A DNA stretch of 63,972 bases, counting the filler, from Octopus bimaculoides (taxonomy: Eukaryota): NCBI RefSeq assembly GCF_001194135.2. It is 8 parts of 8 records of this genome, joined end to end, with 100 filler letters (N's around TTAATTAATTAA, not from the genome) between each part and the next. Parts side by side here need not be neighbours in the genome. Positions count along the whole stretch, not along the records: positions 1 to 28,908 come from NC_068984.1; positions 29,009 to 31,372 come from NW_026422238.1; positions 31,473 to 47,217 come from NC_068995.1; positions 47,318 to 54,046 come from NC_068981.1; positions 54,147 to 56,079 come from NW_026378393.1; positions 56,180 to 58,113 come from NW_026432451.1; positions 58,214 to 62,799 come from NC_069005.1; positions 62,900 to 63,972 come from NW_026340904.1. One strand, 5' to 3'. This document shows, one piece after another, positions 17,056-63,968 of this stretch. The position numbers and the translations under genes were made by a program. A model generated the notes under the pieces. That model made no database searches and was not told the origin of the DNA. It saw nothing but the letters and a program-made list of their open reading frames with translations. Every line of letters starts with the position of its first letter. Position 1 is the stretch's first letter.

Positions 17056-17498
17056 TATACTGTCAACTTAATGTGACAGTCCCAATAAGGGAATCATACT
17101 GCTGCTATTTAGCCCGAGGAAGCTGGACTGCTTCCTGTCGGCCTTGACACATTTCCTGTGTCCTTATATTTGTGAGGGGGAGACAAGCACCCCTACTCAG
17201 CCTAGTCTGCATTCAGGGACATGTTTCTGAGTCATTGCTCGTCATCAGCCTGAAGTAGCAAACCAATTGGCTGGAGATGTCTGTCAACCTCTCGCAAATA
17301 TATATATTTCTAGTCAAAACACATTCACTGATTACAAAAATTAGAAATGATCTAATTATAAATCTCACAGAGAGAATTAAGCAGCAGTGTTACGATAAAC
17401 CAGTTGTATACTGTCAACTTAATGTGACAGTCCCAATAAGGGAATCATACTGCTGCTATTCAGCCCTAGGAAGCTGGACCGCTTCCTGTTGGCCTTGA
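17056..17498 (-). mobile_element. Retrozyme-like element: 351-bp unit plus a 92-bp terminal direct repeat, containing the hammerhead
   Basis: 17056-17147 is repeated at 17407-17498 with 4 mismatches and no indels. Several short hairpins are present (ctgtca/tgacag, aggaagc/gcttcct). No ORF. Confidence 0.7.
17212..17254 (-). ncRNA. Minimal type I hammerhead ribozyme, core intact
   Basis: Minus strand reads UUCAGG-CUGAUGA-C-GAG(caauga)CUC-A-GAAA-CAUG-UC^CCUGAA. Stem I is 6 bp, stem II is 3 bp plus a C.A pair, stem III is the palindrome CAUG, and the cleavage triplet is GUC. Confidence 0.85.
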
Positions 17499-18231
17499 AG
17501 TTCATTATCTGATTCCTTATTTTGTGCTTAAATAACAAACGGAGTTGACTGCTTGATGCTGTTTGCTAATCTGAAATGGCTGGTTAACTTTCTTGACTTC
17601 AGAGGAGATGTATCTTTTATAAAAAAAAAGTGAAAACCTTACAGCTTTATATTTTGGCACAAAATCTGAAAGCAAGGGGTGACTCCTGCAGTAGTAGTAG
17701 TAGTAGTATGAAGGCATATGATGTAACAGTGCATTGCAGCGCTACCACGTGTTGGTGATTCCCTACGCCTGGTGAATGACATCTTTGCACCACTCAGGTG
17801 ACAACCCTCCAACCCATGGGTCTGTTTGAGTAGTCATTGCTGGTGAGTGTTTTATGAGATTGTAGTGTAAATCATACCTCAACTATTTTAGTTGCCTTCT
17901 ATGACATGCAGACAAAATATTAGGTCAATTCTTTGACATGTTGGTCTCCCACACAGCACAACTCAGTGCTGTGTGGAGGCCAATACCTGACTGATACTTT
18001 ATTTTATCAACCTTGAAAAGATGAAAGCCGAAGATGACCTCAGGATTTGAACATAAGATGTAAACAAATACCAAAAACCATATATATAAATATTTAAAAT
18101 AATCATCAGCTGAAATTTATAGAAATATATATACTGATATGTGCGTAAATGTTAATAAATACAAACAAATATTCATATAAGCAAATTCTGGGTAAAAAAG
18201 AAAGAGTTTAATCAACAGGATTACTAATTAC

Positions 18232-18406
18232 CTTTGTTTTCTCACCAGGAGAAGTAGAACCATCAGTAACATTGCCAAGTCTTTGGACTGTAATATGACA
18301 ATCTTGAAGCCATTCAACTGTTTTATCAAGTTCTTTGTTTAAGTTCTTCCGGTCATTAATCTCATCACATATCTGGGTGGAATATTCTTGGCATTGATAA
18401 GATATC
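18232..18406 (-). CDS. Spectrin-repeat protein, internal exon 4
   Basis: tttaatAG | G+ISYQCQEYSTQICDEINDRKNLNKELDKTVEWLQDCHITVQRLGNVTDGSTSPGEKTK | GTAATT. 175 nt, phase 2/0, matching exon 3. The EWL motif fits spectrin helix A. Confidence 0.9.
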
Positions 18407-18489
18407 CTATTAAATGATTATAATAATAAAATGATAATTAATATTATTGTAACTATAATAAATAATAATGATGATTATGATGATAAGAA

Positions 18490-19045
18490 TTTCAAATTTT
18501 GGCACATGGCCAAGAACTTTTTAGTGAGATGAGGTTAGCTAATTACATCAACCCTAGCATTTAACTGGAATTCATTCTACCAACTCCGAAAGGATGAAAA
18601 GCAAACTTCATCTTTGCAGAATTTGAACTCAAAATGTAATAAACTGAAAGAAATGCTACTAAGCATTTTGCTTGATGAGCTTACCATTCTGCCAACATGC
18701 CACCAAGGATGAAAGGCAAAGCCGACTGCAGAAGAATTTGAACTCAGAATGTAAAGATGAGCAAGATGTCGTTGACAATTTCACCTAGCATGCTAATGAT
18801 TCTGCCCGCTGATCATCTTAATAATAATAGTCATTTCTACTATAGGCACAAGGCCTGAAATTTTTGGGGAAGGGGCAAGTTGATTACATTGACCCCAGTA
18901 CTCAACTGGTACTTAATTTATTGACCCCAAAAGGATGAAAGGTGAAGTTGACCTTGGCAGAATTTGAACTCAGAATGTAGCAGCAGACGAAATACTGCTA
19001 ATCATTTTGCCTGGCGTGCTAATGATTCTGTCAGCTCACTGCCTT
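18490..19045 (-). mobile_element. Cluster of three decayed family A SINE copies
   Basis: Repeated aaggatgaaaggcaaag...gaatttgaactcagaatgta...gctaatgattctg, with many CpG>TpG changes. Confidence 0.75.
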
Positions 19046-19057
19046 AATGATAATAAT

Positions 19058-19129
<72 letters not shown>

Positions 19130-61331: not shown

Positions 61332-61540
61332 GGATATTGTTGTGGTAGACCAAAACAAGAAAGTTTGTTTATTGATCGATATGTGATCATAATATCTCGG
61401 CAAAGGAATTTGAAAAGCTCAGAAAGAACAAAGATTTGCTCATTGGAATTGAAAAAAATGTGGCGTCTTAAGGTGGTTACAATACCAGTAATTGTAGGAA
61501 TACTTGAAATGGTCAAAAAAGGAACTGAAAATTATTTGCT
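61332..61540 (+). mobile_element. R4/Dong-like restriction-like endonuclease fragment
   Basis: DIVVVDQNKKVCLLIDM / DHNISAKEFEKLRKNKDLLIGIE / MWRLKVVTIPVIVGILEMVKKG. Confidence 0.8.
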
Positions 61541-61545
61541 AATAA

Positions 61546-62497
61546 GTTTTCGTAAGCTTTGGAGTCAGTAGTCATGACAACCACAAAGCATGGAGAGAGA
61601 ACGAGTTTAATATCTTAGCGCACGTGTAACCTAGACGAGTGTGAGGCTCTCGTCTGCTTGCTTATGCGCCAGACCGTGTATGCGAATGATCTCTGGCGTA
61701 CCATTCTTGCAAGAAACGCAAAACATTGTCTTAACTTGTACGTCACACACATTGAGAAGAACAATGTTGATGTGGGAACGATTACTCCCCCCCCCCATTT
61801 TATAATATTTTCTTTTTTCCATCCAAGATGGCATTCCAATCCCCCATTAGCACTAAAGGTCGAGACGTTCCCAGGAAAACCTCGAAGCAGTCTGATGGCA
61901 CCTCCGTCGCTACTGGTCACATCCAGGACCACCAAAGTACCTTCTGAGTCCACGAAGGTAGTCCTTACCTTCAGATCCAGACATCACCGGAACGACACCT
62001 GCTGCTGCACACCTCCATTTCCAGTTGACATGGCGATAAACAAATGTTTTCTTTATTAACCACTAAAGCTTCATAAAAACAATGCGAACGGTAACATGAG
62101 AAAAGAATGTAGGGCGTGCAAAAATAAAACAATAATAATAACAATGCTAGATAACCACCATCTATCCAAGTTTACTTGGACTGATGGTGACTGTCTGCAA
62201 TCATGACATTATTGTTTATACGCATATTTTCAGTTCAGTTGATGACATATTCGTACAGCCCTTTTGACTTTGTCTTACAGTGTTCTCCATTCAAATGGTT
62301 ACCGAGTTCATTGAATCGAAATTGGTAAAAATCTTATCTCTACGCCTATCGTTGACACACACATACACCGTCTGGCACATAAGCAAGCAGACGACAACCT
62401 CACACTCGTCTGGGTACACGTGCACTAAGACATTAAACTCGTTCTTTCTCCATGCTTTGTGGTTGTCATGACTTCTGACCCCAAAGGTTACGAAAAC
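61546..62497. mobile_element. Non-autonomous TIR element with about 140-bp terminal inverted repeats
   Basis: 61546-~61684 (gttttcgtaagctttggagtcag...cagaccgtgtatg) is the reverse complement of ~62355-62497, roughly 90% identical by eye. No clear TSD. Confidence 0.8.
61820..62030 (-). mobile_element. Tx1/L1 AP-endonuclease fragment inside the TIR element
   Basis: GGV..SFR*CLDLKVRTTFVDSEGTLVVLDVTSSDGGAIRLL then TSRPLVLMGDWNAILD (APE GDxN motif), with an internal deletion. Confidence 0.8.
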
Positions 62498-63280
62498 AAT
62501 TACTTCCCATGAAATATTTCAATGTTTCAACAACTACATAATTAAGGGTGCAAAATAGCACCTGAAATCGCTAGAAATAAGGGCTAAAGGATATATAAAA
62601 GCTCTTATTTCTAGTTAATTCCAAGTGCTATTTATGAATTTTGCTTTTTTTGGTTTTTAATTGCTTTACTCACCTATATAATAATGTATTTAATATATCA
62701 TAATACATTTATTACCTCCGTCAAGGTTATGTTTTCATTGGCTATACTGGCAACATGACTGCCCCCAAATACGACAATATATATATATATATATATATAN
62801 NNNNNNNNNNNNNNNNNNNNNNNNNNNNNNNNNNNNNNNNNNNTTAATTAATTAANNNNNNNNNNNNNNNNNNNNNNNNNNNNNNNNNNNNNNNNNNNNA
62901 TACATACACGTATATATATACACACACACCTATATATATTAATATATGTATAATTTAGATTTATTGTGTAAATATTAGTGGGTAACAGGTTTGTGGATTT
63001 GTGTAAAATGAATGAAAATAATGTTGTGAACACACATTTCTAATTATTATTCATATGTAATCAAAATAATGTTAACAATCATTTTAAACTGCTGAAATAT
63101 ATTAATAATAAAGTGGCAAATGTACAAAAATAAATCTTATGCAAGTATGCATGCTTATGTGAGCATGTGTGCGTTTATGCCTCTGAGTAAATATGCATGA
63201 TGTGTATATGTATGTGTATTTGTGTATATTATATATATAACTATATATGATTATATACACATACACACACACACACACAT

Positions 63281-63315
<35 letters not shown>

Positions 63316-63792
63316 CATATATATTTATATGTATATATATATAAATATAATATTTTAAATACATTTATTAGATACATTACCGAAAAAATTAGCAGTTATA
63401 TAATACTAGCTATAATTAAATACTTATGTAATGAAAGTAATTATATAACAAAAAAGTAGGTAAGTGGCTGCTGCATGCAGCTTCTGTCAACTTAAGAAAA
63501 CTAGTGTTTATTGGCAAGAAAATATCACAGACCAAAGAAATTATTTATACCACCTGAAAATTTTTGGAAGAAAATTTACTAGGAAAATATACTTTTTTTA
63601 AAATCTGACTATAGATGTAGTACATAGTTCTTTATATATGTACATATTTATGTATATGTAAATAAATATATATGTGTATATATATATGTGTGTGTATATA
63701 TATGTATATATATATATATATATATACCGGAGTAAGCACATAAAATGTGCAACAAGGTGGAAAAAGAGTACTCAAATACCAGAGGTAAAGTA

Positions 63793-63968
63793 ATATGCTT
63801 TATTTAAAGCAGCAGAAATATAACAAAAGACTGTTATTTGGAGTTTCACATTACCATTCATCGGACAGTTTTGTTAGAAATTTCTAACAAAACTGTCTAA
63901 TGACTGGGAACGTGAAACTCCGAGTAACAATCTTTTGCTATATTTCTGCTGCTTTAAATAAAGTATAT
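63793..63968. mobile_element. About 88-bp-arm palindrome with a degenerate hammerhead in each arm (Penelope pseudo-LTR-like)
   Basis: The centre is agaaa|tttct at 63880/63881, with no loop or indels. Right arm: ACUGU-CUAAUGA-CUGGGAACGU-GAAA-CUCCGAG-UA-ACAAU. Left arm reverse complement: ACUGU-CCGAUGA-AUGGUAAUGU-GAAA-CUCCAAA-UA-ACAGU. Their consensus restores CUGAUGA and stem I. Confidence 0.7.

Follow-up and report, generated by a model that had tools for sequence, protein, structure and literature searches.

The stretch of DNA considered here, called the window in what follows, consists of eight joined pieces of the genome of Octopus bimaculoides with a total length of 63,972 nucleotides (nt), filler included; the genome comprises 2.34 Gb in 145,327 contigs. 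It carries motifs with the architecture of the hammerhead ribozyme, which quite probably represent minimal type I hammerheads in the terminal repeats of four unrelated families of Penelope-like elements, found as scattered, short and truncated insertions, and which would cut slowly and only as pairs joined by their palindromic stem III. The motifs detected by motif scan and the insertions in which they lie are the following, pLTR standing for pseudo-long terminal repeat.

17212-17254, minus strand: hammerhead A
29153-29200, plus strand: hammerhead B
60901-60940, minus strand: hammerhead C
63830-63869, minus strand: hammerhead of the left arm of D
63892-63931, plus strand: hammerhead of the right arm of D
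17053..17498, minus strand: family A element, a non-coding unit of about 352 nt plus a 95-nt terminal repeat, seen as a direct repeat
29009..29067, minus strand: copy, in inverted orientation, of the 5' portion of the insertion of family B, one of a pair of arms
29075..29418, plus strand: family B element, the shortened 3' end (pLTR) of a Penelope-like element assigned to the Hydra type by adjacency
60587..60952, minus strand: family C element, a pLTR-only copy of a young Penelope-like element fitting the Neptune/Nematis type, set in (TA)n
63727..63968, minus strand: family D insertion, a 3' end together with its own fold-back copy (arms 63793-63880 and 63881-63968)

A sequence-only reading of the window had named these places, and a hammerhead-shaped motif is indeed present at every one of them. 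Its claim that four different families are involved also stands, as no alignment was obtained between the repeat flanks of A, B, C and D; a first look through the genome yielded 1,675, 2,614, 1,047 and 1,537 candidates for A, B, C and D, figures which are not copy numbers. The supposed clustering within 47 kb, on the other hand, disappears, since the sites map to four separate contigs (A to C4, B to C127381 of 2.4 kb, C to C25, and D to C46047 of 1,073 bases) and the apparent proximity is therefore an effect of packing. The statement that all motifs share CUGANGA...GAAA...UH is true for one of the five, hammerhead A, which alone has the textbook core. Only two of the five motifs, A and C, match their own family. 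At the level of the family consensus the catalytic core was found in A and B (30 copies each), whereas C and D have variant cores. The near-palindromic, loop-less stem III is a trait of all four families, but it is broken in the B copy of the window and decayed in the left arm of D.

Hammerhead A combines its canonical core with a stem I of six base pairs, a stem II of three base pairs flanked by C and A, and the stem III palindrome ACAUGU; the predicted cut lies after position 17218. This copy corresponds to the family majority at all 46 columns counted, and the majority of 30 copies gives a canonical core for the family. The majority of 30 copies of family B likewise gives a canonical core, with the palindrome ACAGCUGU, and hammerhead B of the window is a decayed version of it. 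U16.1 has become C (T in 26 of the 30 best copies), the palindrome is broken at a place where 28 of 30 copies have A, and the self-duplex is weakened from -11.1 kcal/mol for the family to -2.9 kcal/mol for the window copy. Hammerhead C contains an extra A between C3 and U4, a stem I of three base pairs and the palindromic stem III ACUCGAGU, with a predicted cut after 60904. In family D the left arm reads CCGAUGA (a change of U4 to C, U4C) with stems II and III decayed, and the right arm, likewise decayed, reads CUAAUGA, where G5 has become A.

For stem III of A, B, C and D no hairpin was predicted, and the calculated self-duplexes range from -4.6 to -11.1 kcal/mol. As stem III cannot close in a single motif, pairing between two motifs was proposed. 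The type I junction is closed by stems I and II, in which compensatory changes are seen; stem I of C comprises three pairs, and mismatches occur in copies of the GAC subfamily. An unpaired base after A9 and the pair G10.1-C11.1 can be read in A, B and C together with a further base before G12, and not in D. MAFFT did not align the six window motifs according to their structure, and this alignment was left unused.

Whether such motifs arise by chance was judged by descriptor scans against shuffled and reversed sequence. A strict descriptor gave two matches in the window compared to a mean of 0.018 in 765 shuffles, one of the two being a new and weak site at 27046. Allowing one mismatch in the core gave three matches compared to 0.54 in shuffled sequence, which alone is not convincing. 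The new site can be described as follows.

27043-27079, plus strand: possible fifth motif with canonical core and palindromic stem III, stems I and II being weak

A match of this type occurs once in about 2% of shuffles, and the site has no relative among 1.67 Mb of collected loci, no genome-wide search having been made for it. The genome was sampled by 80 evenly spaced stretches of 10 kb with 695,976 non-N bases. One descriptor, asking for at least four pairs in stem I, found 11 matches in this sample compared to 0.56 in 233 shuffles; a second one, asking for a perfect palindromic stem III and permitting up to 94 nt for stem II, found 16 rows corresponding to 15 distinct intact sites of about 13 families, compared to 0.29 in shuffled sequence (maximum 2, n=150) and none in reversed sequence. 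Pattern searches gave 2,072, 761, 309 and 295 matches, with 0, 0, 1 and 0 in the reversed controls. The view that AT-rich repeats gave rise to the motifs by chance, or that these motifs form a special cluster at one place, could draw on the weak excess of the one-mismatch scan of the window and on the 27046 site, for which no family was found. It is already refuted, except for 27046, by the density of the genome sample, far above that of its shuffles, by the almost empty reversed controls and by the spread over four contigs. A local cluster was also rejected on the basis of the count itself, as the descriptor with palindromic stem III finds three matches in about 59 kb of non-N window sequence where about 1.3 are expected (Poisson P of about 0.14), so that the window is not enriched over the genome sample.

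The density of the second descriptor is about one motif per 46 kb, which extrapolates to about 44,000 intact motifs in the genome (Poisson range about 25,000-72,000, the sample consisting of large contigs only). The large and diverse load of ribozyme-bearing Penelope or retrozyme-like elements put forward by the sequence-only reading is thus supported, although not for the reason given there. Comparison with the Rfam database revealed no hammerhead among the best 150 of 260 matches in the window, where microsatellites gave rise to microRNA matches, and nothing reached the gathering score in seven loci. Among the 15 sampled motifs five have a canonical core together with a stem II region of about 55-85 nt (L182, L228, L236, L244 and L247). 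A U3-A8 variant of the core occurs in the families of L017, L048, L178, L227, L228 and L275.

The association with a coding element is firmest for family C. Longer copies encode a reverse transcriptase with DKG and YLDD motifs, a CX4CxxC linker and, at the C terminus, a GIY-YIG endonuclease. The GIY-YIG domain ends about 350 nt before the motif and was recognised by Pfam above cut-off (E 6.4e-7); the RVT_1 match remained below cut-off (E 2.3e-4), both coming from broken copies, and DKG, the CX2-5CxxC linker and the CCHH of the endonuclease were read by eye in translations. This fits the 3' end of an autonomous Penelope-like element of the Neptune/Nematis type, a classification based on motifs and not on a tree. 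The family shows 5' truncation, an inverted 5' pLTR (L375) and microsatellite targets, and the end of the element is reached 330 nt behind the motif, where it adjoins (TA)n. A TATA-like box is found 61 nt and an initiator-like site 29-30 nt before the GACGA of the core, and the copy in the window starts just behind this predicted start site. From 15 copies listed in order of position 13 begin within 32 nt of the core (two of them at assembly gaps) and two reach past the TATA box; the TATA segment is kept in 44 exact copies, whereas the number having the motif is about 1,000, judged from 15 of the 30 matches listed first among 2,072. Most C copies appear to be complementary DNAs which ran through an uncut hammerhead to the 5' end of the transcript. 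The 3' untranslated region of C contains about 110 nt duplicated in tandem, upstream of the TATA box (L295 and L305), and a short open frame ends at a stop codon located in the loop of stem II.

The core of C reads GGC-CAUGACGA (C-A-UGACGA) in all 30 best copies, and an exact-match search found no C copy lacking the extra A. Having the core CAUGACGA and no canonical copy, family C is not a strict member of the published minimal hammerhead class. Loci selected by the endonuclease of C, to which they are 94-98% identical, hold different hammerheads in the same slot. A pattern for these sister subfamilies retrieved 309 copies compared to one in the control; from the first 100 listed, 95 have a base between C3 and U4, which is A or U and once C, and five, belonging to one subfamily with a canonical core, lack it. 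The assignment follows from the register of stem I, which places the invariant C at C3 and makes the base following it the additional one. Across the sister subfamilies stem II varies as AUGCC/GGCAU, AUACC/GGUAU and CUGCU/AGCAG, stem III as GUACGUAC, AUACGUAU and GUAUAC, and stem I, incompletely, from GGC/GCC to GAC/GUC. These paired changes argue that the fold of the C lineage stayed under selection with the extra base present, whichever state is the older one, and that the ribozyme can likely cope with a nucleotide bulged out after C3. Simple decay of the C core had been considered and was dropped in view of these results.

Family B ends, judged by adjacency, a Penelope-like element of the Hydra type. 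A Hydra-type endonuclease lies about 1.1 kb upstream of the B hammerhead in one locus (L148), and a sister motif sharing stems I and III of B is found 0.8 kb behind an endonuclease in L154 and L171; the Hydra-clade features assigned to B come from a single adjacent locus and from the sister family. The B sister and D appear to have a CxCX5C linker and a Hydra-like endonuclease end. Pfam did not recognise the Hydra-type endonuclease pieces. In the window the arms 29009-29067 and 29091-29149 of the B insertion are 92% complementary. Three rows (L050, L051 and L056) lacked the anchor and were left out of the anchored B set.

Family D probably ends a Hydra-type element too, but is only weakly tied to it, by a Hydra-like endonuclease end 1.5 kb upstream of D in L122 (a weak match, pairwise E 3e-4). 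Two long D copies share 1.6 kb of upstream sequence, and this endonuclease end precedes it in one of the two. Among the first 100 of 761 position-ordered matches listed, the core is CCGA in 86, CCAA in seven, CUGA in six and CGGA in one, CUGA and CCAA being the two products of CpG decay of CCGA. With the core variant CCGAUGA the family is not a strict member of the minimal hammerhead class; its stem III palindrome has one variable central base. Fold-back copies such as that of the window were found in 14 of 30 rows, or nine of 25 distinct places. In one locus (L334-L337, contig C1 near 100.108 Mb) a span of 220 bases contains four D motifs, arranged head to head in two pairs with a repeat distance of 148 nt. 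Besides D, several unrelated families (L154, L171, L185, L191, L303 and L351) have the U4C core (CCGANGA).

Family A has a different build. Its direct repeat in the window (17053-17147 and 17404-17498) has a spacing of 351, and a period of 336-352 with permuted terminal repeats was found in eight of 28 loci; L019 and L024 were left out of the anchored A set because they lack the anchor. A second family with the same build and flanks only faintly like those of A was termed family E (L253-L282, L162 and L191) and is a non-coding unit found in abundance, about 370 nt long and permuted at its ends. It has three stem III palindromes which covary with stem I, and the same stem II in all subfamilies. 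A coding partner of family A was not found, and in the loci collected no endonuclease lies upstream of A or E in the orientation of the element. The linkage to reverse transcriptase and GIY-YIG genes, which the sequence-only reading named as a point to be checked, is firm for C, present by adjacency for B and weak for D, and for A none was found.

The non-coding unit and the permuted repeats of A and E, together with a few RNA reads of family A which go back by 343-348 nt, could indicate active retrozymes that replicate as circular RNA. This explanation of the families is improbable. A tandem of two hammerheads was seen in none of the 28 A loci, the reads are of low depth and from both strands, joints that go back by one unit also follow from permuted genomic copies, and B, C and D are the ends of longer elements. 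Family A can accordingly be called retrozyme-like only, having the non-coding unit while tandem arrays are absent in the 28 loci examined.

For minimal hammerheads residing in Penelope-like elements the following course of events may be envisaged. Transcription of an element would begin at a start site about 30 nt before the hammerhead, and reverse transcription would begin 130-330 nt behind it and run back to the 5' end of the RNA. Such an internal start was shown for an anole element (PMC11167929) and would give fixed 3' ends. The result would be thousands of short copies with one hammerhead, often with an inverted second copy. Since the copies keep sequence 5' of the predicted cut, it is likely that their templates had either not been cut or been rejoined. 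Within a tandem transcript two motifs would pair via stem III and, by analogy with the motifs of PMC4209133, cut weakly, thereby trimming or circularising the RNA. Selection would act on a few source elements, and the scattered single copies would be inert and decaying, like B and D of the window.

Several observations weigh against this picture. RNA sequencing runs yielded 308-549 reads per 11.5-12.9 million records, both strands alike, and neither the starts nor the ends of these reads coincide with the predicted cut or the start site, although such libraries may not keep those ends and need not be strand-specific; the RNA evidence is neutral to negative for self-cleavage. In one tested case natural insertions next to C3 slowed cleavage 425-fold, and U4C lowers the activity in vitro (PMC3088659), so that nearly all activity may be lost in C and D. 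No more than three pairs form stem I of C, and five of ten listed copies of the GAC subfamily keep the mismatching GCC partner. An intact source element was not found, nor an intact open reading frame in the 20 stretches examined ("long open frames" being mostly runs of N), and family A is without a coding partner.

One may ask, then, whether the cores of C and D are catalytically dead and the fold is kept for another purpose, as a signal for protein binding or dimerisation or as part of a promoter. Both C and D occur in abundance and with little divergence (their copies being up to 99% and 94-95% identical, respectively, to that of the window) despite changes of kinds which lower activity, their copies keep the sequence 5' of the predicted cut, no RNA ends occur at that cut, and the Naiad elements spread without canonical hammerheads (PMC8557442). 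G5, A6, G8, A9, GAAA and UH are fixed through all subfamilies while the stems change, however, one C sister subfamily has a canonical core, and related minimal motifs cut weakly as dimers (PMC4209133). A non-cutting role is consequently regarded as unlikely, and slow cleavage by paired motifs is preferred. Should the alternative apply, the variant cores would mean that elements succeed with a ribozyme which is deliberately slow or dead.

The second subject concerns the origin of stems II and III of family C. A set of 295 copies has the exact 16-nt 5' flank and the 3' flank of C, but not the start of its stem II. From the first 100 of these listed, 98 carry one other module in this slot, two are point variants of C and none is mixed; conversely, all 15 listed C copies carry the stem III of C itself. 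RNA reads from three other samples contain the second module in the slot of C. The module of C is identical to that of the E1 subfamily at 19 of 20 positions, and the flanks of the two are at background (0.47 and 0.40). For 374 pairs of modules from different families the mean identity was 0.34 (standard deviation 0.12), the best pair without C and E reaching 0.70, and the sister subfamilies of C resemble the C module at 0.25-0.59. The youngest C subfamily has therefore likely gained stems II and III as one block from E, with breaks in the first core box and at UH. The direction from E to C is suggested by the constancy of stem II throughout E, where stems I and III covary. Two template switches at the shared core boxes would be the simplest route. 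Cleavage and ligation of a hetero-dimer, as another means of swapping, was rated lower than template switching, since the stem III palindromes of the two modules do not complement each other.

This proposal meets two difficulties. An E copy with exactly the module of C was absent among 17 E loci, and in a tree of the flanks, for which 20 of 50 given loci passed the filters, only two of 17 inner branches were well supported, so that the order of events is not established; the row of this tree labelled s5 (L079) is a family C copy. Common descent or convergence, in place of exchange, was also considered for the shared module. A purine-rich opening of stem II with AGGG is found in family B as well, pairing within the stems reduces the free letters to about 12, and the faint resemblance of the flanks of E to those of A allows that flanks may drift fast. 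Against this, the sisters of C share its flanks and a nearly identical endonuclease and yet differ in their modules, E has the module of C within unrelated flanks, and no hybrids occur among the listed copies. Descent or convergence is accordingly considered a doubtful explanation, and the transfer of a block from E is favoured.

Taken further, Penelope-like elements might trade stems II and III as a block between unrelated elements by recombination at the core boxes, and the C lineage might run on an active hammerhead with a bulge inside its CUGA turn. This combined proposal is tentative, with the balance still somewhat against it. If true, a trade of blocks changes the stem III palindrome and with it the set of RNAs with which an element can pair and cut, and a bulged core escapes standard descriptors. 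It would account for the unexplained variety of ribozymes within one genome, which has been flagged as hard to explain by point mutation (PMC4209133). Nearly identical elements with different ribozymes in one slot, reached by stepwise paired changes and one apparent block swap, make this question testable. With a conserved base after C3, and with several families in which U4C has become fixed, the consensus of the hammerhead would have to be drawn more widely, and current counts would be too low.

The window contains further features. Three segments on the minus strand (1574-1978, 15892-16329 and 26671-27018) are probable exons of one gene for a spectrin-repeat protein; a Pfam Spectrin match exists for the first only (1577-1978, minus strand), on the same strand as hammerhead A. 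The family A insertion would thus sit between exons of this gene in the same orientation. A 98-nt direct repeat in two copies, 90% alike, is located at 16560-16755. A Helitron fragment (PF14214) occupies 50677-51785 on the minus strand, and a helix-turn-helix fragment of a mariner-type transposase (PF17906) 57701-58051 on the plus strand. An element of 950 bases at 61546-62497 has long terminal inverted repeats (86 and 54 nt, 91-92%), and its open reading frame has no match in Pfam.

Minimal hammerheads in the pLTRs of metazoan Penelope-like elements were described by Cervera and De la Pena in 2014 (PMC4209133), and their occurrence in many families at Penelope ends is already published (PMC4209133, PMC8557442). 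The ribozyme load itself is thus known biology in another animal, and the extra base and the apparent module swap matter more. In the available portions of this literature neither a base conserved between C3 and U4 nor an exchange of modules among different families was found to be described; Lunse et al., whose dimer-cleaving variants may hold them, and one supplement of PMC4209133 were outside the scope. The octopus motifs share with the published class the type I build, the short stem I, the palindromic stem III, the many unrelated families per genome with mostly single truncated copies, the pairs on opposite strands and the U3-A8 variant, and in A, B and C an unpaired base after A9 may be read as in that class. 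They differ by their density, by U4C fixed in several families, by the additional nucleotide after C3 in one lineage, by a module common to unrelated families and, in A, B and C, by the base which separates G12 from the last G-C pair of stem II.

The C lineage agrees with the Neptune and Nematis elements of Craig et al. 2021 (PMC8557442) in its reverse transcriptase, DKG, CX4CxxC linker, C-terminal GIY-YIG, (TA)n targets and inverted 5' pLTR. The B sister and D appear to agree with the Hydra clade of the same work in the CxCX5C linker and the Hydra-like endonuclease end, and stems I and III of D resemble the Hydra element listed just before Hydra-1_Obim. Unlike in that work, the clade was assigned here by motifs and not by a tree, and the octopus Hydra element listed there has another hammerhead. 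Families A and E resemble the metazoan non-LTR retrozymes (Cervera and de la Pena 2020, PMC7229834; Li et al. 2026, 10.64898/2026.07.22.740005) in that their units, of about 350-370 nt, are non-coding, have permuted ends and carry a type I hammerhead. The published retrozymes form tandem arrays with mostly canonical hammerheads and abundant circular RNA, whereas in family A the motif is minimal, two motifs in tandem were absent from the 28 loci studied and the RNA depth is low. The nearest precedent found for the extra base of C are the saltern hammerheads of Perreault et al. 2011 (PMC3088659), which also have natural extra nucleotides at the junction of stem I and C3. These are three sequences from a viral fraction with insertions 2a and 2b before C3, one of them being the case of 425-fold slower cleavage, whereas the C lineage, an animal retroelement, has a single base after the invariant C, and has it in more than 1,000 copies.

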